A stretch of DNA of 64,000 nucleotides from a virus, in the IMG/VR virus record IMGVR_UViG_3300038463_000277, positions 4,960 through 68,959 of that record; one strand, 5' to 3'. A program made the position numbers and the translations under genes. This document shows positions 4,355 to 55,119 of this stretch, one piece after another (the stretch's first letter is position 1; each line of letters opens with the position of its first letter). The notes beneath the pieces were generated by a model. The model was not told the origin of the DNA. It ran no database searches and worked only from the letters and a program-made list of their open reading frames with translations.

Positions 4355-4972
4355 CTAAGCACCAAAAAATGCGCCGCGTCCGCTCGCGCGACCTTTAGAG
4401 AAGATTGCGCCGCGCTCTTTCGCTGACAGCTTTGAAGACTGGCCCATGCCGCCCGAGACAATTTTCGGCGTGGGAAACGCGCCATCGAGCACGGGATTCG
4501 GCGGGCCGCCTGCCGGGGGCGGCATCGGCGAAGTGCTCTTGCCCATGTTGCCGTCGCTGCCGATGGGATTGCGCGGAGCCTTTGCGACCGCTCCGCCCTT
4601 TGTGGGTCCGCCTAAGCCGAGAGGCAAAGGTCCATTGCCGCCGCCGAAGCTGCCGGGCGTTGCTTTGCGCGGAGCCGCTGCGAGGTTGCCGACTACCGTC
4701 TTGCGCGGTGCGCCTGCAAGAGAGCCCACCATGGTTTTGACTGGTTTCACGCTCCGCATCGGAACGATGGTTTTGATTGGGTTCATCTGTGCTCCCTTCA
4801 AGGCTTGCGCCGCCATCTGCATTGGGTTTCCCAGCGGGTTCGGGGCGGGGCCTGTGCCCTGTGCCCGAGCCGCTAGATGTGGTCTGAGTTGCGCCGGAGT
4901 CTTCGGCGACTTGAGGGCCGCGAGTACCCCGGCGCGCATATGGCCGGACTGTGATGGATCGCCGAACGCCAT
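4355..4972 (-). CDS. Pro/Gly/Ala/Lys-rich disordered protein ending AFFGA
   Basis: GGAGG SD; internal KT[IMV]V repeats; low complexity. Confidence 0.65.
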   Translation of the reverse strand: MAFGDPSQSGHMRAGVLAALKSPKTPAQLRPHLAARAQGTGPAPNPLGNPMQMAAQALKGAQMNPIKTIVPMRSVKPVKTMVGSLAGAPRKTVVGNLAAAPRKATPGSFGGGNGPLPLGLGGPTKGGAVAKAPRNPIGSDGNMGKSTSPMPPPAGGPPNPVLDGAFPTPKIVSGGMGQSSKLSAKERGAIFSKGRASGRGAFFGA

Positions 4973-40126: not shown

Positions 40127-40313
40127 CGCCCGGCAAATCGCGAAGCTCTATGCGGTGTCCTACGGCACCGCTCGCAATTGGATTATGAAGCTAAACGGCG
40201 ACGATGCGGCGATGGGAGTGAATAAGCTCAAGGGGCGCGGAAAGCGCCCTTATCGCCTGCGGAGACTCGACGACTCGCAAATGGCGGAACTCGATTCGCT
40301 CATCAACGGCTAG
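40104..40313 (+). CDS. Excisionase-like small HTH protein
   Basis: YNARQIAKLYAVSYGTARNW; convergent with the integrase. Confidence 0.65.
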   Translation: MKPTQKYNARQIAKLYAVSYGTARNWIMKLNGDDAAMGVNKLKGRGKRPYRLRRLDDSQMAELDSLING

Positions 40314-41743
40314 GCGCTTTCCTTTTCGAGTGCCAACATGCGATCCAGCTCCGCCACGTCTTTTTCGGATTGCTGTAAGCTCTCTAGGTCTTCGTTGCTC
40401 CATGTCCGACGATTCGCCTGATTCGCCTTTTCCTGCAACCGCGTTGAGAATTTGTAATAGTGTTTGCGCACCACGTCGGGCGTGTCGCCGATTAGGGTCG
40501 CAACCTCGGGAACATCCGCGCCCTTGAGGAAAAGGTTTTCGACAAACGAGTAGCGGAAGTTATGGAAGGTTGGCCAGTTCGGTTGATCGTATTCATCGAC
40601 GCCCATGTCCTCGCGTACCATCTTCTCATCGAGAAACTCGCGCAGCCGCACGAACGACTTTTGCCAAGTGTCGGCGGCGTTCGTGACCTCGCCCGATCCC
40701 GCCCAAAAGAAATAATCCTTGTGGGTGTTGGTCGTCGGCACGTCCATCAACTCTTTCGCGAACTTCGGCGAGATTTCGACATAGACCGGGTTGCCTGTTT
40801 TTTGGCGGTTCACGTCAAAGAAGAAATGGTGCCGCACTTTCTTTAGGCGATCCCGGCGCGCGGTGAAGGCGTCAGTGAGCGCGAATCCCGTCCTGTACAT
40901 CAATTCGCAACCGATCTTCATGCGCTGCCCGAAGCCCGCAACCGATTTCTGGTTTGGGGTTTTAATCGACGCTCCGAGATGTCCCCACGCCGCGAGGATG
41001 GCTTTGTAGAGGCGCGGAGTAAGCGGCCTGCGCTCGCGCGGTTTCCTGCTCTTGCCGCGCACCTTGAGAAAACGCGCGGGGTTGTCCTTCGAGACCAACT
41101 TTTCGCCTCTGCGGGTCCGCACCGGCAAGAATTGCTGCGTGCTTTCGATCCAGTTGCGCGCGATACAAAAATCAAAAAACGCGATCAAAAAACCTTTTCG
41201 CTTTTCCTTGGTGAAGCCTGACATCTGCTTTTGCTTTCCGTCCGGGCCGAGTGGCATCGAGGTTTCCCATGTCTTCTGGAACTCATCGAGGAAATCAACC
41301 GTCACGTCATTGGGGGTCGCGACGTTCTTCTCTTCGGCGAAGGCTTTTAGTTTGCGATGCAGAGACTCGTATTTCACGAGGTCTCTGATTCCCTCGCCGC
41401 TTCTCTTCGAGTCGATGAATTTCAAGAACGCATCCGAGAGAGGGATCGCGATGACGCCCGGTCTGGCTCGCTCCGCTGCCTCTTGCAATTTGCGAGCGCG
41501 GGCGGTTTCTGGATCGTGGTACTTCATCCACTCCTTCGCGCGAGTGCGGGCCATCTCCCAGCTCTCCGTACCTGCGGGAGCACGGAGTCTTCCCGGCGCG
41601 ATATAGAAACTCTTTGGGCAATCGCAATCTTTTTCGCGTTCGGTTTTCGGGTGCTTACATTCCGGGCGATGCTGTTTGACGATGACGGAAAACTCGGGGC
41701 GGACATTGAAGACCAATTTTTTCAGGTCGAGTTTAGCTCTCAT
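40310..41743 (-). CDS. int: Tyrosine integrase
   Basis: RQKTG, FHNFRYSF (HxxR), VATLIGD, VRKHY; N-terminal H/C Zn-like motif. Confidence 0.92.
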   Translation of the reverse strand: MRAKLDLKKLVFNVRPEFSVIVKQHRPECKHPKTEREKDCDCPKSFYIAPGRLRAPAGTESWEMARTRAKEWMKYHDPETARARKLQEAAERARPGVIAIPLSDAFLKFIDSKRSGEGIRDLVKYESLHRKLKAFAEEKNVATPNDVTVDFLDEFQKTWETSMPLGPDGKQKQMSGFTKEKRKGFLIAFFDFCIARNWIESTQQFLPVRTRRGEKLVSKDNPARFLKVRGKSRKPRERRPLTPRLYKAILAAWGHLGASIKTPNQKSVAGFGQRMKIGCELMYRTGFALTDAFTARRDRLKKVRHHFFFDVNRQKTGNPVYVEISPKFAKELMDVPTTNTHKDYFFWAGSGEVTNAADTWQKSFVRLREFLDEKMVREDMGVDEYDQPNWPTFHNFRYSFVENLFLKGADVPEVATLIGDTPDVVRKHYYKFSTRLQEKANQANRRTWSNEDLESLQQSEKDVAELDRMLALEKESA

Positions 41744-43113: not shown

Positions 43114-43475
43114 ACCCAAGGCTCTTTTCGCGCATCCTCGCCGAGCATCGCGGCGGCCACTTCGCAGAGCGCGACGCCAGCAATCTGGTTGGTGGTCGGA
43201 TACCAGTCATCGAACGTGCAACCCCACTCCATGTAAGTGATGCCCGCGACGCTTCGCCAGCTATGACCTTCGACGCAGCGCAGATGCCGGATGCGTTGGG
43301 CGTCCGGGCGGTTCATCTTCGCCTTGACGACTTCTGTGATTTCGCGGTGACGCTCGCCCGTCGCCTTCGCCAGCTCGGTTATCTCCTCGACGCTCGCGAC
43401 GTGGGAATTCGCGACTAGCTTTTTTATTTCCGAGGGCGATGCTTTCGGGTCGCCCCAATAGATCGGGTCCGTCAT
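43110..43475 (-). CDS. Hypothetical protein
   Basis: SWRSVA...NQIAGxxLC; coupled. Confidence 0.65.
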   Translation of the reverse strand: MTDPIYWGDPKASPSEIKKLVANSHVASVEEITELAKATGERHREITEVVKAKMNRPDAQRIRHLRCVEGHSWRSVAGITYMEWGCTFDDWYPTTNQIAGVALCEVAAAMLGEDARKEPWV

Positions 43476-43678
43476 AGCTTTATGACCTCCACGGGTGAAT
43501 TTGTAATGAGGTCGCGGTATCCGTCCCCCCAGTCGAGCACGGGCATCATGCCAGCATATCCGCCGAGGAGTGCCTCGAACTCTAGCGCGAGGCTGTTGCC
43601 GTTCTCCGAGGCGAGCACGACGACGCCCTCGACCTCGCGCCCCTTGAAGCGGATTTTCACGCGGTCACCTTTCGTCAT
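43472..43678 (-). CDS. Small SH3/KOW-like protein
   Basis: KGDRVKI...VVLASENGxSL. Confidence 0.65.
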   Translation of the reverse strand: MTKGDRVKIRFKGREVEGVVVLASENGNSLALEFEALLGGYAGMMPVLDWGDGYRDLITNSPVEVIKL

Positions 43679-43938
43679 GGGTTTATATACTCCTTCTCAG
43701 GATCGCCGCCCGGTCGCCGTCTGCCGGTGTCAGGGTGCCGCATCCACCCCTCGGGCTCGCCGGTGCCGTCCCAGCTCTTGAGCGCAGCGACCGCCGCGCC
43801 GGGTGTGTCGTATCACCATGCGTTCTCGGTCCACTGTGCCTCGGTAGGTCCGTAGATGAGGCGCGCGCGCCCGAAGGTGAGCGGGATCACCCACGCCGTT
43901 TTGCCGTCCGCGAAATCTTTCTGCGCGAAGTAGTTCAT
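43675..43938 (-). CDS. Candidate selenoprotein (87 aa, in-frame UGA at codon 42, SECIS-like hairpin)
   Basis: TGATG overlap at start and ATGA overlap at end; single internal TGA at 43813-43815; hairpin GCGCGGC-GGTC-GCTGCGC 13 nt downstream. Confidence 0.7.
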
Positions 43939-44243
43939 CACTGGCACCGCTTATCGGTCTGCATGATTTCCGTGACGGCCTTTTGCACGCGCTCCTGAAA
44001 ATCCGGCTCTCCTATGTCACCCTCGACGATGGCGTCGGCGAGGCGGCGAAGGCGCGCCGGTATTGTTCTGCCGCGTGTGACGATGAGGATGAGCGGTTTA
44101 TCGAGCAGAAGCGACGCGCCAAGCTCTAAGCAAATCTTCGGATCGGGATGCCCGCCGGGGGTAATTATGAGCGTGATGGCGGACTCAATCATCGGCAACA
44201 CTTCATCCGCGAAGCGTTTGAGATATTTATCGTTGGCGTCCAT
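43938..44243 (-). CDS. Nucleoside 2-deoxyribosyltransferase/TIR-like small protein
   Basis: PDPKICLELGASLLLDKPLILIV. Confidence 0.6.
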   Translation of the reverse strand: MDANDKYLKRFADEVLPMIESAITLIITPGGHPDPKICLELGASLLLDKPLILIVTRGRTIPARLRRLADAIVEGDIGEPDFQERVQKAVTEIMQTDKRCQ

Positions 44244-44244
44244 T

Positions 44245-44466
44245 TCAATTTTCCTCGAACTTCGCGATGAACTCGCGCATAGTCGCAATCATGCCCTCGC
44301 GCTCGGCGGAAGAGATGTAGAAAAGTTCCTTGCCCTTGTAGGAGAACACGAGTACGGTGAAGCCGAAGCCGTCGGGCATGGACTCTTTGAGCGTCCGCCC
44401 GATTTCTCGGAGCTTCTTCTCGGCGGCTTCGTTGCGAACTTCGTAGCGCATGGGATCGTTTGCCAT
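44245..44466 (-). CDS. Hypothetical protein
   Basis: MPDGFGFTVLVF...FYISSAER. Confidence 0.65.
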   Translation of the reverse strand: MANDPMRYEVRNEAAEKKLREIGRTLKESMPDGFGFTVLVFSYKGKELFYISSAEREGMIATMREFIAKFEEN

Positions 44467-44547
44467 CCGGGGATTTTACTCCCGTTCCTATCCGGGCACA
44501 ACGGTGTTAGTATGTCGTTCGGGCCAGAGTTACACCCTCTTGTTTTT

Positions 44548-44943
44548 ATGGCTTGGATTGGGCAGTACATTCTCGATGAGAACGGCGACGCGCAGCCGGA
44601 GCCGGACACGTTTCGGTGGGGGCGCTGGTTCGAACACTCGCACGAATCCACGGGCAAAGATAACCGCATCGTGCGGCGGGATGAGGTTGGCGACATTAGC
44701 GTCTCGACCGTGTTCCTCGGGCTCGATCACGCTTACACCCTCGACGCGCACGAGCCGGTGCTTTGGGAGACGATGATTTTCGGCGGGGCGCACGATCAGT
44801 ACCAGCGGCGCTACACGAGCCGCCGCGATGCCGTGGCGGGGCACATGGAAGCATTGAAGCTCATCGAGGCGTGGGCGCTCGACATCGACGAACTCAATCG
44901 GATGCTCGCGCTCGAACCGGCGTGGGTGCGGAAGGTGCAATGA
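44548..44943 (+). CDS. Conserved phage protein (VSTVFLGLDH motif)
   Basis: VSTVFLGLDH...WETMIFGG...YQRRY...AxxGH. Confidence 0.7.
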   Translation: MAWIGQYILDENGDAQPEPDTFRWGRWFEHSHESTGKDNRIVRRDEVGDISVSTVFLGLDHAYTLDAHEPVLWETMIFGGAHDQYQRRYTSRRDAVAGHMEALKLIEAWALDIDELNRMLALEPAWVRKVQ

Positions 44944-46757: not shown

Positions 46758-46970
46758 ATGATGATTCTCTTCGACTCATTCGACTTGAAGAACCTCCGCG
46801 AGTTTGCCTGTCCGATATGCTTCGAGCCGAGCCCGGTCACGCTCGGCGAAAAGTGGCAAGTGTGCCCGCAGTTCCATTTCACGAAGACGAAGACGATTTG
46901 CCCAACCGACCGAACGATTGACCCTAATAGTGCCCCTTCTCGCCTTCCTTCACCGCATCCGCATCAATGA
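46758..46970 (+). CDS. Small zinc-ribbon protein, antisense to the late operon
   Basis: CPIC...CPQFH; TATATT just upstream of the ATG. Confidence 0.4.
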   Translation: MMILFDSFDLKNLREFACPICFEPSPVTLGEKWQVCPQFHFTKTKTICPTDRTIDPNSAPSRLPSPHPHQ

Positions 46971-49900
46971 CAATCACTCGTCCATCGGGCAGCCTGCCCA
47001 AGTTATAGGTCGCGGCATCCCAGCTTAAACCCTGAGCGTCGAGTTTTTTGGTCATCGCGATGGAGTCTGCCTCGGTGATGCCCGAAGTGTCTACCCACGG
47101 GTAAATTCCGACATGCACTTTCTTGCTTGCGCCCTGAATCACTTCTGTTTTGATCGGCGCAATCACGTCGGGACTCTTGATTGTGCTCGGGGGCTCATCG
47201 CTGACTCGCATCACGTTGCCGTTCTTCAAGTCGAACACTACAGCCTTAGTGCCGCTGTTCAAGTACGAGATGGGCTCGGTACTGTTCTCCGCCGCGAACT
47301 TGCGAATGCTCGACATCGTTTGCGGCCCGGTGGGGATGGTGTTGTTAACGTGGTAATTGAAGTCGGCGCTTTCATCGTCCGACATGGGGCGAGGTTCGTG
47401 AGCCGCTGGAGCTGGAGCCGTGGCTCCGGGCGCGGGCTCTCCTCCTTCGGGAGCTTGTCCAAGTTCTTTGCCGATGGCGGCGCGAATCTGCGGGTAGATT
47501 TCCTTAAAAACTCCATCGAGCTTCTCGCCCTGCGTAACGCGCTTGCCCGCGTCTTCTAGGATTGAGCCCACGGGGCCAGATTTGTACTGCACTCGGTTGA
47601 AGTGTTCCGCGAGTTGCTGCGCGCCCGCCGCTTGCTGCGCGGATTCGTTCATGTCAACGATGTTCTTGCCACGGGCGAGAGCCGCTTGCCGCGATGCGTC
47701 CGCCTTCGAGATGAACTGCAAAGCGGAAGTTTCTCCACGGAGCGCGCCGTCGATCTTCGAAGCGAGGCGGCCCGTTGCGACCGCGTTCGATACCGAGTCT
47801 TCTTGGTCGCCGAAGAGCCCTTGTGTGGTGGTCGCGGTGTTGCCCTGCTCCTTGATGCGCAAAGCCTGCTGCTGTAGGTCCGCCGCCGAGAGGCGATGCG
47901 AGGTTGCCATCTGCGCGAGCGCGGCCTGCTGCTTCGGATCGTCGAGACCTCCAACCGCGACGGCTTTGTTCTCGTCAATCTCACCCGAGCGATACTTGTC
48001 CCACATCGCATCGGAGAGATTGGAGAGGGCGGAGCCTTTCTTTATTACGTCGCCCGTCAGATTGATGCCGCGAGCCGCGAGCGCGCCGGTCGTTGTGCCG
48101 GTCTGCCGCAGATAGCTCGCAGCGTCGAACGGTGTCGCATTCCCCGCCTCTAGATTTTTCTCCGCTCCAAAGCGTTTCGCTTCGGCGGCGTTTGCAAAAT
48201 CATGAAACCGCGCTTCGATTTCCGGCGTGCCCGTCGCGACGGCGTGATTGTAACGATGATGCCCATCGACGACTTTGACCTTGTTGTCGGCTGGATCGCG
48301 CCAAACGTCTATCGGCCCGGCCTTGTCCTGATCCCATGGCGCGCCTTCGGGTATAGTCGGGCGCGGCATCTGCCGCCATTGGAAAGTCGCGGGGTCAGCG
48401 GTCAGGTCTTTGGTCTGCACCATGCGCACTGCCGAGGGGCGGCCCATGGTCTCGCCGTCGGGTTTGGTCGCGGCGGGTTCGGACTCTGGCGAACCGCCAA
48501 ACATTTCGTTCTGCGGGCTCGCGCCGGTTCCACGGAAGAGCGGCGAATTTGACTCCATCGCGCCCGCTGCGCGCTCGATGTTGCCTTTGGGTTGAGCGAG
48601 GTCGGCGGTCATGCTCGCGCCAGCTTCGGCGCTGCGCACGGTCGCACGTTCGGCTACGTGGTTTTCCATGCCCGGCAGTGATGGCTCTGAGGTAGCACCC
48701 TGCGGCTCTCTCACCATATAGCCGAGCGCCGGATCGGTGCCGGGCTCGGGAACGAAGCCGTGTTGCCCGTACCATTTGACTAAATTGTCTTTCCCTAACC
48801 GCGTTGCTTCATCGCCATAGGGGGACGCCGTTAGCTCCATGGTCACGCCGTGCTTGTCCGCGATGTCGGTGATAGACCGAAGTGCGGAATTCCCCGCGCC
48901 GGTGCCGGGCTTTAAGGTTTGGATTCCTTTCAGCCGTAGCCTGCCATCGTTTTCGGCGACGGTAAAGGTCGCGTTCGGCCCGTCCTTGCCCATCGAAGCA
49001 TATTCTTTCGGATTGGTGCCCGCGCCCGGATTGTTGGGGTTGACGGGGAACTGCTTGTCGATTTCCTGTAACGCTCCATGGACTCCGGTCGCCGTTGGCT
49101 CGGGAGTGGCCGCTGCCGGGGCTGGCGGGGCCGCTGGGGCGCTCGCTGGCGGTGGCGTGGTCTGAGGGGTGCCCTCTGTGAGCTGGCGAGGCTTCGAACG
49201 CCCTGCCTCCCATGGCATGACGGGGCGGGTTTGGGCTGGGATCGTGGCCGGGCCTGCCGGAATCGGACCTCTTTCGGTCGGTACATACTGTTGGCTGTCC
49301 ATGAGCTGCCGGGGGACGACTCCAGAGACCGGGTTGTGTTGTGGCGCGGCGTATTGGCCTGCGGGCAACGCGCCCTTGATGGTCGGCGGCGGGGCCGTCG
49401 CTTCCGGCATGTACTGGCCTTCGTGAACTTCGTTTGGCAGCATGAGGCGCGACGGAACGGGAATGGGCGATGCGCCTGCGGGTCTAGCACCGGGCGCGGC
49501 GGCGGCATTGACGGCGCTTGTCGCGCTCGTGGCCGAGGTCGCGGGGAGCTGCGGCGGTACTGGCCTCGGCGCGGCGGTTGCCTGCGGCCCCGGCCCTCCG
49601 GCGAGAGGCGGCCCTTCCGGCATCGCGTTTGCGGCGCGCTGCGCGAGCATGTCAGGCGCGTTGAAATACTTGTGAATTTGGCTCGCCGCAATCGACCCGA
49701 CGCCGCCCAAAGCTGCGAGGGGATGCCCGGCCATGAGCGCGGCGAGAGCTTCGCCGCCGCCGCCTAGCAAAGTTAGTTGCTGTTGGAGAGTCGAGCCTTG
49801 GTGACGCGCGTTTACCACGGCGCGCTTGTCGAAGACTTTTTGAATCTGCTTGAGCGCGCCGTACTGCTGGCGCAACCCGGTCGGATCAGTCTCGCCGTTG

Positions 49901-51105
49901 GCGGTGAGCTTATCGTCGATGGCAGTGCGCAAACCCGCTGCCGCGTCTTCCATTGCCGAGATGCTGCCGCTCGTCATGCCTGCGGCGTGCTGCATGTCGG
50001 GCGTCATTCTGTAATAGCCCTTTAGTTCCGCGTTGAGCGTTTGCAGATAGTCGCTCGCTTTCGCGATGGTGATAGGGCCGTCGAACTTGCTGGCGAAGTC
50101 AGTTGCCCGCTGCGCTTTTTCAGGGAAGAGGTCTCTCATCCCATCCGTGACACCGGAGCGAATTTTGTCGCCGATGGGTGAGCCGTCGATAACTGCCGTC
50201 GCGTTGCGGTCGATCTGCGGTTGATAGAACTGTTTATAGAGCCTGTCAGCGGCTTCGTGTGCGCCGTCCGCCATGTTCTCCGCGCTCTTGATCGGCTTAA
50301 TTTTGTTTTGCTCGGCGATGCGCGGCCCCGCCGTATCTACCGCGTCAGAAAATCCACGGTCGAGGACGGACGGCCCTCCGGCCTTGTTCATTAACTCTTG
50401 ACCTGAAAGCCCGATGCCCGTCGCGTTCTTCCCTGCATTCAAGACGGCCTTCGTGCCTGCCGTTGCGCCTTTCACTACGCCGCCGCCGACGGTATCGACT
50501 ACGGAGTTAGTAACCCCCTCGCCCGTCTTTGTGCCGAGCCCGAGCATCGCCAATTGCGCCGATGCCGAGCCTAAGCCGTGCGCGATCTGTTCCGGGTCGC
50601 CCGACTTGATACCCTGACCAACTTCCTCGCCTGCTCCAACCGTCGCGGGTCCGAGGAGCGGGATCGCCGCGCCGACCGCATGAACGACGCCGCTAAATTT
50701 ATTGGCTAGACCCTCACTCCGTAGCTCTTGCTGACCCTTTTCGAAAAGCGCGTTCTGCGAGTCGTACATCGAGCCGCCGACTAACTTCGCCGATTCGACC
50801 GGATGTTTGATGATGTTCCACAAGCCGGGGACGCCCGTGAAGTCTGAGGCGTGCGAGGTCTCGGGCAATCCAGCGCCACTTGCCGCACCTAACATTCCCT
50901 CGCGCAATACTCCGCCGACCTTTTGGTCAACGGTGCGCGGGGTTGCCGGTGTCGCCACAACTGGCGGCGGACCCGTAGTAACCGGCTTACCCCCTAGATC
51001 GGAGAAGTCAATCGGGCCGGGTGCTGGCGCGGGCGGCGGCGGACCAACCGGCTTGCCCCCTAGATCGGAGAAGTCAATCGGTTGAGTACCAGAGTTACTT
51101 GCCAT
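46924..51105 (-). CDS. Large polyvalent ejection/internal virion protein (GNAT, ParB-like and kinase-like domains)
   Basis: Position after smaller ejection genes; GTGAG..LVKWYGQHGF, VVDGHHRY, NSGTKAVVF..WDAATYN..VIDADA. Confidence 0.8.
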   Translation of the reverse strand: MASNSGTQPIDFSDLGGKPVGPPPPAPAPGPIDFSDLGGKPVTTGPPPVVATPATPRTVDQKVGGVLREGMLGAASGAGLPETSHASDFTGVPGLWNIIKHPVESAKLVGGSMYDSQNALFEKGQQELRSEGLANKFSGVVHAVGAAIPLLGPATVGAGEEVGQGIKSGDPEQIAHGLGSASAQLAMLGLGTKTGEGVTNSVVDTVGGGVVKGATAGTKAVLNAGKNATGIGLSGQELMNKAGGPSVLDRGFSDAVDTAGPRIAEQNKIKPIKSAENMADGAHEAADRLYKQFYQPQIDRNATAVIDGSPIGDKIRSGVTDGMRDLFPEKAQRATDFASKFDGPITIAKASDYLQTLNAELKGYYRMTPDMQHAAGMTSGSISAMEDAAAGLRTAIDDKLTANGETDPTGLRQQYGALKQIQKVFDKRAVVNARHQGSTLQQQLTLLGGGGEALAALMAGHPLAALGGVGSIAASQIHKYFNAPDMLAQRAANAMPEGPPLAGGPGPQATAAPRPVPPQLPATSATSATSAVNAAAAPGARPAGASPIPVPSRLMLPNEVHEGQYMPEATAPPPTIKGALPAGQYAAPQHNPVSGVVPRQLMDSQQYVPTERGPIPAGPATIPAQTRPVMPWEAGRSKPRQLTEGTPQTTPPPASAPAAPPAPAAATPEPTATGVHGALQEIDKQFPVNPNNPGAGTNPKEYASMGKDGPNATFTVAENDGRLRLKGIQTLKPGTGAGNSALRSITDIADKHGVTMELTASPYGDEATRLGKDNLVKWYGQHGFVPEPGTDPALGYMVREPQGATSEPSLPGMENHVAERATVRSAEAGASMTADLAQPKGNIERAAGAMESNSPLFRGTGASPQNEMFGGSPESEPAATKPDGETMGRPSAVRMVQTKDLTADPATFQWRQMPRPTIPEGAPWDQDKAGPIDVWRDPADNKVKVVDGHHRYNHAVATGTPEIEARFHDFANAAEAKRFGAEKNLEAGNATPFDAASYLRQTGTTTGALAARGINLTGDVIKKGSALSNLSDAMWDKYRSGEIDENKAVAVGGLDDPKQQAALAQMATSHRLSAADLQQQALRIKEQGNTATTTQGLFGDQEDSVSNAVATGRLASKIDGALRGETSALQFISKADASRQAALARGKNIVDMNESAQQAAGAQQLAEHFNRVQYKSGPVGSILEDAGKRVTQGEKLDGVFKEIYPQIRAAIGKELGQAPEGGEPAPGATAPAPAAHEPRPMSDDESADFNYHVNNTIPTGPQTMSSIRKFAAENSTEPISYLNSGTKAVVFDLKNGNVMRVSDEPPSTIKSPDVIAPIKTEVIQGASKKVHVGIYPWVDTSGITEADSIAMTKKLDAQGLSWDAATYNLGRLPDGRVIVIDADAVKEGEKGHY
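50980..51082 (-). repeat. Two copies of a PIDFSDLGGKPV-coding repeat
   Basis: AACCGGCTT[A/G]CCCCCTAGATCGGAGAAGTCAATCGG near 50980 and 51046. Confidence 0.85.
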
Positions 51106-54631: not shown

Positions 54632-55119
54632 TGCTGACGCACTCCGCTCGGCGGCCCGCTCTGTGTCTTGTCGAGCCCGCCAGAAAATACATTCGTCCAA
54701 TCGGTCGGCGGCGTCGGGTTCGGCCCCGGCGCGGTCGTATCCGGCAAGGGCTGCGCTTGAATGTGAACGCGCGGGCCTTCGCGAAATCCGTTAATGGTGC
54801 TGACAAAGAGGTTGGTGACGGGCGGCGTTGCTCCGCTTGATAGCGGGATGAAGAGCTGCCGCGTGCCACGGTCGCGAATCTGCGCGTGCAAGTTGCTCTC
54901 TGTGCCGAGATAGACGCGGTAGCCGGTGACGTTCTCGGAATTGACGGGCAACTTCCAAGTCAGAAGCGTGCCGCCTGCGCCCGGCTGTACCTGCGCATCG
55001 CGCGCCATAAGTGGCAGCTTCGAAGTGCCATGGGTGCGCACCTTGTTGACCGCTTGGTTCCGCTGTTGCAGCATCGCCGTGCGGTTCGAGCCGAGCTGCG
55101 GGCCGATGGAGCTTTTCAT
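54628..55119 (-). CDS. FN3-like tail protein
   Basis: LLTWKLP...VTGYRVY...VSTINGFREG. Confidence 0.6.
   Translation of the reverse strand: MKSSIGPQLGSNRTAMLQQRNQAVNKVRTHGTSKLPLMARDAQVQPGAGGTLLTWKLPVNSENVTGYRVYLGTESNLHAQIRDRGTRQLFIPLSSGATPPVTNLFVSTINGFREGPRVHIQAQPLPDTTAPGPNPTPPTDWTNVFSGGLDKTQSGPPSGVRQQ

Follow-up and report, generated by a model that had tools for sequence, protein, structure and literature searches.

We analysed a stretch of 64,000 nucleotides (hereafter the window), positions 4,960 to 68,959 of the virus record IMGVR_UViG_3300038463_000277, and we concentrate on one small gene on its minus strand. Positions 43938-43675 form a single frame of 87 sense positions plus a terminal TGA, and this frame is broken once, by an in-frame TGA at 43815-43813. 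An initial annotation of this DNA had proposed that the frame exactly fills an apparent gap in a tightly coupled operon and that it encodes a phage selenoprotein. The UGA would then stand for selenocysteine (Sec), and a hairpin just after it would be the Sec insertion sequence (SECIS). The frame and the in-frame TGA are both there as described. The start ATG (43938-43936) has its A in common with the TGA stop of the upstream gene (43940-43938), and the downstream gene starts at an ATG (43678-43676) that overlaps the terminal TGA (43677-43675). Past the internal TGA the frame reads YDTPGAAVAALKSWDGTGEPEGWMRHPDTGRRRPGGDPEKEYINP, and it arrives at its proper TGA stop 45 codons beyond UGA-42. We argue that this is the gene of a small candidate selenoprotein of a temperate phage, made by way of a bacterial-type SECIS and the Sec machinery of the host, and we put the probability of this reading at about 0.8. 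The features that the argument needs are as follows.

43675..43938, minus strand: candidate selenoprotein gene of 87 residues, with the proposed Sec as residue 42, coupled translationally to both neighbours
43816..43938, minus strand: the N-terminal 41 codons before the UGA, where an ordinary open reading frame (ORF) caller gives a 44-aa ORF (43813..43947) starting from a GTG at 43947
43813..43815, minus strand: in-frame UGA, the proposed Sec codon (residue 42), preceded by ...TENAW and followed by YDTPGAAVAAL...
43781..43800, minus strand: SECIS-like hairpin with 5' arm 43800-43793, loop 43792-43789 and 3' arm 43788-43781, scoring 51.4 bits with the covariance model R1 described below
43789..43792, minus strand: apical loop GGUC, whose first and last bases are third codon positions, each at least 90% conserved in 24 canonical copies

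The ORF list made for the window shows only the 44-aa N-terminal piece, and the gene had rightly been reported as missing from it.

Homologs and the codon at the site

A protein search with X in place of the TGA recovers 94 proteins of 47-153 aa, many of them covering 95-100% of the query. These full-length homologs span both halves of the frame, so it must be treated as one gene. The residue aligned with the UGA is Cys in 67 of the 94. The remainder have D (6), Q (5), E (4), H (3), W (2) or N (2), or M, F, Y or T once each, and there is one gap. WCY is read at the site by 58/94, which agrees with the W-C-Y that had been suggested for similar small phage proteins. The apparent Trp of the closest homolog (P0002) is only the reading of a gene caller, since the gene lies on L122 and has TGA as this codon (P0002 is one of the two W proteins, and P0047 is the other).

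The codon itself was read in 80 viral loci (alignment A2), 74 of them by a motif script and the 6 that the script missed separately. TGA is found in 35, TGC or TGT in 37, another sense codon in 8, and TAA or TAG in none. The script-read loci break down as TGA 30, TGC 19, TGT 17, TAT 3, CAT 2, and GAC, TAC and TTC once each; the missed ones have TGA in L006, L029, L032, L043 and L054 and Cys in L064. TGA or Cys therefore occupies the site in 72/80 viral loci. This fits the Cys/Sec pair that was predicted, and not Trp or a random assortment of residues. The Cys forms run uninterrupted through the site. Named copies that were translated are all Cys forms, and come from 2 of 9 Caulobacter vibrioides phage records, Sinorhizobium phage Phosso and a Skermanella rosea plasmid, the last being the one form returned by a plasmid search. 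That member lies at 30896-31210 of plasmid pSR-4 (L161, 100.9 kb), between a helix-turn-helix regulator and a BsuBI/PstI-family restriction endonuclease gene.

A metagenome scan with P0002 gave 38 loci, 35 with TGA and 3 with TGT; several of these contigs were already among the viral loci. There are 54 distinct segments consisting of the TGA plus 38 nt, and protein identity to the window's gene is 40-68%. Whether the TGA extends beyond one assembly was a check on the proposal, and it does. Besides these 54 segments, contigs from 4 runs in 4 studies, which are independent peat assemblies, are identical over 43778-43815, with TGA and hairpin intact. Two of the four come from a variant strain, which differs at 17 other places within 652 bases. 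The variant strain (runs X9 and X10) gains one base behind 43836 and loses one at 43839, so that the N-terminal half returns to frame. A metagenome contig of 389,250 bases (L156) carries a TGA form with a canonical hairpin and a diverged, shortened C-terminus (...GRYRLHLSHLEAQ). A contig of this length may come from a jumbo phage or from a chromosome with a prophage.

Among the criteria for a new selenoprotein family set out in PMC1976440 are at least two Cys homologs, TGA/Cys pairs above 50% and at least two different TGA sequences. A further one is a stem-loop immediately 3' of the UGA with a G in its apical loop (PMC1976440). The present family has 54 distinct TGA segments, Cys homologs, TGA/Cys pairs above 50% and a stem-loop with an apical G.

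A tree was made from 71 distinct proteins representing 75 rows, using the last 92 residues and leaving out L006, L029, L032, L043, L054 and L064. One group of 32 (support 87/68) contains all 30 TGA rows together with the Cys form L044 and the His form L045. Under midpoint rooting, the only rooting used, this group is nested among Cys forms, and its sister is the Cys form L024 (94/86). The TGA label changes 3 times on the tree, against a mean of 23.0 when labels are shuffled. This suggests one Cys-to-Sec change within the phage family, with later reversions.

The hairpin downstream of the UGA

The 7-bp stem GCGCGGC/GCUGCGC with a GGUC loop that was first noticed here lies at 43799-43782, and with one more pair, G.U between 43800 and 43781, the stem has 8 bp. 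From the UGA it is 12 nt to the stem and 20 nt to the loop. Most TGA forms have a stem of 5-10 pairs with the loop beginning at the same distance, 20 nt beyond the UGA. The loop of the best stem was tabulated for 31 TGA forms. It is GGUC in 21, AGUU in 2, CGUGC or CGUGU in 3 and GUG in 1; in L022 and L036 the script chose another loop though GGTC stands at the aligned place. The loop positions G24 and C27 are nearly invariant in canonical copies.

The hairpin goes with the TGA. At least 5 contiguous pairs are found at the site in 28/31 TGA forms versus 12/44 other forms, and the median number of contiguous pairs is 7 versus 4 (Mann-Whitney p = 1.2e-8). Pairing extends to 91.1% of cells in the 24 canonical copies, and covariation is 0.466 against 0.202 after shuffling (0 of 500 shuffles as high), while partners that are slid out of place reach at most 0.133. 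Widening the set to all 54 distinct TGA segments, irregular ones included, leaves 81.7% of cells paired, with covariation of 0.417 against 0.190 (again 0/500 as high) and slid partners at most 0.167. The two top-covarying pairs, 21-30 and 18-33, each link two third codon positions, and they switch between GC, CG, AU and UA. Since the strongest covariation joins third codon positions, constraint on the protein does not explain those pairs. The stem is also kept in copies where the peptide has changed (GLAVVSL or SAVAGF in place of AAVAAL).

Covariance model R1 was built from the 24 canonical copies and run over the window plus 81 loci (534 kb). It returns 31 matches of 26.9-57.2 bits, of which 24 are the training rows and 7 are new. 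Every one is at a TGA site of this gene family, and the next best score is 15.7 bits. There is no second R1 site in the window. Specificity of the hairpin to TGA homologs had been named as a check on the selenoprotein proposal, and the pairing counts, the covariation and the R1 matches all go in its favour. We argue from these comparisons that the hairpin is selected as RNA and is specific to the UGA forms.

The loop had also been likened to that of E. coli fdhF at similar spacing. In the K-12 record the Sec140 site of fdhF has the UGA, 18 nt, and then a GGUC loop, so the comparison holds to within 2 nt of the 20 nt seen here. The gene for formate dehydrogenase H, which uses SelB and a SECIS, thus shares with the phage gene an in-frame UGA, a stem-loop 3' of it inside the ORF, and the loop sequence GGUC. 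Cys-containing homologs exist for genes of the fdhF type as they do for the phage gene. The differences are that the loop is 18 rather than 20 nt after the UGA in fdhF and that the aligned fdhF stem is two pairs shorter. Unlike genes of this type, the phage gene is carried by a virus in which no sel gene was found (selA was not searched in virus records), and its protein is unrelated to any known selenoprotein or to a Pfam family.

The phage, its protein and the Sec machinery

The virus record is 68,959 bases long, with a G+C content of 59.2% and a 50-base terminal repeat, which indicates a complete genome. Its integrase, RecT- and RecE-like genes and portal domain mark it as a temperate tailed phage. 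Metagenomes of peat and permafrost contain it in 20 runs (15 studies), 5 of which may have supplied this DNA. Among 50,697 deposited phage records, blastn with the gene region found no DNA relative and tblastn with a window protein of 607 aa no match. The window's RecT has matches of about 40% identity, and among the matches listed are phages of Bordetella, Burkholderia, Gordonia and Geobacillus. Matches spread over such diverse phages mean that RecT does not decide the host.

The gene sits in a string of small, densely packed minus-strand genes upstream of the integrase. Its neighbours and the integrase are:

43938..44288, minus strand: upstream gene of 116 aa without a Pfam family, whose TGA stop shares a base with the ATG of the candidate selenoprotein gene
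43472..43678, minus strand: downstream gene of 68 aa without a Pfam family, whose ATG overlaps the terminal TGA of the candidate selenoprotein gene
40310..41743, minus strand: integrase at the end of the same gene string (phrog_1, E 7e-21; Phage_int_SAM_5)

No Pfam family was found among the small genes of the string. No gene neighbour is conserved either, as each of the window's 10 neighbouring proteins matches at most 2/81 loci. A 309-aa ORF on the plus strand (44014-44943) runs antisense to this operon and is probably a by-product of G+C-rich sequence, not a gene. Elsewhere in the window there are three very long minus-strand ORFs, 46924-51105 (1393 aa), 55116-59354 (1412 aa) and 60795-63701 (968 aa). 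Only the 1393-aa ORF among them has a PHROG match (portal domain, residues 888-1174), and the structural module of the window has no recognisable relatives in PHROGs.

AlphaFold2, given a 71-row alignment, models the protein as one compact domain (pLDDT 95.9, pTM 0.85) with strands at 5-8, 13-19, 25-31 and 39-43 and a helix at 46-55. Residue 42 is placed inside the fourth strand. A product of 41 residues would, by this model, be a broken domain. The best-conserved stretch of the family (WDGTGEPEGWxRHPxTGRRRPGGDPxxEY) follows the UGA, and all seven invariant columns of alignment A5 (W56, P62, W65, R67, R73-75) lie past it, in frame.

The protein has no Pfam family. PHROGs gives only phrog_24748, of unknown function, for one homolog. 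There are 0 matches by sequence in the PDB at E up to 1. Fold searches gave nothing significant with Foldseek against the PDB (best E 0.38), with the wide VIA search (best Z 5.5) or with BFVD (best E 0.05, to uncharacterised phage proteins), and the ESM Atlas, searched with homolog P0003, holds viral hypothetical clusters only. The best Foldseek rows are chains of the anti-CRISPR AcrF1, a small phage inhibitor protein that is alike in fold only, with a four-stranded antiparallel sheet and one helix over about 60 residues. This match is not significant (E 0.38-0.64, TM 0.47-0.54; VIA Z 4.6, within the noise range of the tool) and there is no sequence similarity, so we do not claim membership with AcrF1. 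Four proteins are longer fused forms, and their only annotated additions are FeoA-domain insertions, which say little about the family. In P0095 and P0103 the FeoA domain (PF04023) stands between the helix and the C-terminal EPEGW...GRRR motif, in place of the WDGTG loop.

Location near an integrase, among small genes without known family, suits an accessory protein aimed at the host. As a best guess, it would act on a host target, by binding or inhibition, as a small accessory protein with one reactive selenol or thiol near conserved Trp, Tyr and Arg residues.

The initial annotation stated that the window has no sel genes and that the phage would borrow SelA, SelB and tRNA-Sec from its host. 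The complete phage genome has no tRNA genes. In 36 virus records with a TGA form, among them the genome of the window, neither selD nor selB was found over cut-off, and that part of the statement stands with the limit that selA was not searched there. tRNA-Sec was found over cut-off in 0/30 TGA-bearing virus records, and the near-cut-off tRNA matches are Ser and Tyr tRNAs. With no Sec machinery over cut-off in the phage records, the phage would depend on its host. The records are consistent with borrowed SelA, SelB and tRNA-Sec, and the host would then be expected to have selABCD. A control search for SelA gave no match in C. vibrioides, the species whose phages include Cys-form copies, and this fits the reading.

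One selB-like match was rejected. It is in virus record G435 and turned out to be an EF-Tu-like gene spread over three frames (L121:5870-7078, minus strand), about 1.5 kb downstream of the TGA-form gene. A ClpS-like ORF (L121:8808-9137) adjoins the family gene in the same record, and the N-terminal part of the family gene is also out of frame. Either a large number of indel errors in G435 or a decayed tuf gene in the phage may lie behind this. Another virus record, G413, which also carries the TGA form L013, has a tRNA with anticodon CUA at L112:1497-1573, called 'tRNA-Pyl' by ARAGORN. It would be of the amber-suppressor type, and is unrelated to UGA decoding.

Weighing the readings

We propose the following route for translation. 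A host ribosome would arrive at UGA-42 with the hairpin 12 nt downstream, and the 8-bp stem and GGUC loop would act as a bacterial-type SECIS. The hairpin would recruit host SelB carrying Sec-tRNA(Sec). Sec would be inserted instead of termination, and translation would go on to the TGA stop 45 codons further. SelB binding and Sec insertion at this site are what we infer from the codon and the hairpin together.

Several observations weigh against this reading. A single-sequence fold of 71 nt from the window has z = -0.05 and a minimum free energy structure without the hairpin, RNAalifold on the 31-sequence alignment A3 gives 0 pairs and no consensus structure, and Rfam has no match at gathering score in the window (within 43600-44000 at E up to 10 it lists two snoRNA rows at chance level and nothing else). 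By itself the hairpin is no better than chance. It is the comparison across relatives that raises it above chance. Not every relative conforms, as about 8 of the 54 distinct TGA forms are off the canonical register. L047 and L079 are among these and have no convincing hairpin. Six divergent TGA forms score at most 15.6 bits with R1 or have no score at the site. R1 ranks the fdhF site only second in its 3.5-kb locus (3.3 bits, E 2.3), so the likeness between the phage hairpin and fdhF is a resemblance of design and not a statistical match. It must also be said that the site is not invariant Cys. Another residue or a gap is found in 27/94 homologs, which means that the residue is not essential in every member.

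The last point against concerns the host. A scan of genome contigs found at least one locus, and 2/401 genomes of the class of G001 have a match. G001 is a metagenome-assembled genome of 3.2 Mb (completeness not given), and it is the only genome bin with a TGA copy among the matches listed. It has no selA match, and selB, selD and tRNA-Sec are not found over cut-off. The TGA contig of G001 is 83.7 kb long with uniform G+C, and in 10 large ORFs the Pfam matches are confined to a phage tail protein, BNR-type repeats and DUF932, no housekeeping gene being among them. Such phage-only content means the contig may be binned phage. Given this, and given that completeness is not stated, the missing sel genes of G001 are weak evidence against Sec insertion.

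One can picture a scenario where the UGA is read without Sec. A near-cognate tRNA (Trp or Cys) would give programmed readthrough, perhaps aided by the hairpin, and both a short and a long product would be made without selenium. The lack of Sec machinery in G001 would fit this, and so would the tolerance of other residues in 27/94 homologs. We consider it improbable, though it survives better than the other alternatives. The aligned residue is Cys, not Trp, and the W of P0002 is a caller's rendering of TGA. The GGUC loop is conserved at synonymous positions and is identical to the loop of fdhF. Readthrough leaves both the choice of Cys as the alternative residue and the conservation of the loop unexplained. 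In the single-domain AlphaFold2 model the UGA also falls inside a beta-strand, and a product ending there would be left as an unfolded fragment. We know of no hairpin-stimulated UGA readthrough in bacteria. In readthrough of the Q-beta A1 type a complete protein comes before the stop and an optional C-terminal extension after it. That version was considered and rejected, as here the UGA is inside a single domain and the homologs are uninterrupted.

Another scenario makes the UGA a true stop with a regulatory hairpin behind it. Either only a 41-residue peptide would be made, or the C-terminal half would be started separately. An ordinary ORF caller does end its 44-aa ORF at this TGA. We find this harder still to believe than readthrough, because the 45 codons beyond the UGA are the most conserved part of the gene and are in frame, and in the window there is no in-frame ATG, GTG or TTG between the UGA and the conserved part from which they could be started. 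The Cys forms run straight through, and the protein is modelled as one domain.

The remaining two explanations can be set aside. A nonsense mutation, pseudogene or sequencing error would account for a bare in-frame stop and nothing more, and is refuted by 54 distinct TGA-bearing sequences at 40-68% protein identity, a stop that is exclusively TGA and never TAA or TAG, four independent assemblies that agree, and a conserved downstream frame. Genome-wide reassignment of TGA to sense (of the table 4 or 25 type) has in its favour only that a gene caller rendered P0002 with W at the TGA, and is refuted for this window by the TGA that ends the window's gene, both of its neighbours and 22 of the 31 TGA-form copies of the gene, just as the absence of global recoding had been argued from neighbouring stops; moreover table 11 gives the window 89.5% coding content, 37 of its 80 greedy ORFs stop at TGA, the genome has no tRNA, and none of the 8 tRNA-bearing loci read has a UCA anticodon.

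If Sec is inserted, one may ask what it is for. A possible answer, which we hold only tentatively and think unlikely to be right in full, is that Sec replaced Cys once and was kept through deep divergence, that the UGA and its SECIS also sense whether a host is Sec-competent and supplied with selenium, the full-length protein being produced nowhere else, and that a selenol may attack or capture a host target (e.g. a defence or redox protein) better than a thiol.

Viral selenoproteins have precedents outside the phages. The glutathione peroxidases of molluscum contagiosum and fowlpox viruses are virus-encoded selenoproteins, which the review puts as 'at least two viruses' (PMC8310308). Like the phage protein they are encoded by a virus and depend on host Sec machinery (PMC8310308). 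The poxvirus genes are captured cellular genes with a eukaryotic SECIS, whereas the present family is phage-specific and has a bacterial-type hairpin inside the ORF. No phage is named in the accessible portion of that 2021 review of viral recoding (PMC8310308). Selenoprotein families from metagenomes (the Zhang and Gladyshev approach, deep-Sep and BSepDB) rest on the same type of evidence and the same criteria as ours. Those catalogues concern bacteria, whereas this family sits in phages. Neither main text, that of deep-Sep or that of BSepDB, contains 'phage', 'viral' or 'virus' even once, and that of BSepDB also lacks 'prophage'. Phages that recode stops, such as crAss-like phages in which TAG is read as Gln under code 15 (PMC9523058), also read through an in-frame stop in a phage gene (PMC9523058). 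Theirs is a genome-wide reassignment, whereas here there is one site per genome, TGA is otherwise a stop and the signal is a local RNA. The titles and abstracts returned by full-text literature searches contain no report of a phage-encoded selenoprotein.

In the literature covered here, Sec insertion is known from cells and from two poxviruses with captured host genes (PMC8310308). If our reading is true, phages can evolve SECIS signals of their own, and use the SelB, tRNA-Sec and selenium supply of the host. Phage gene callers would systematically split or miscall such genes, as with the 44-aa ORF and the Trp at the TGA. The hairpin would be a short natural SECIS with an E. coli-type GGUC loop, directly testable in E. 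coli, and the protein, compact at 87 residues, modelled with confidence and occurring naturally in Sec and Cys forms, would be a handy system for comparing selenium with sulfur. The TGA form would also be a marker of Sec-competent hosts, and could be used in host prediction.

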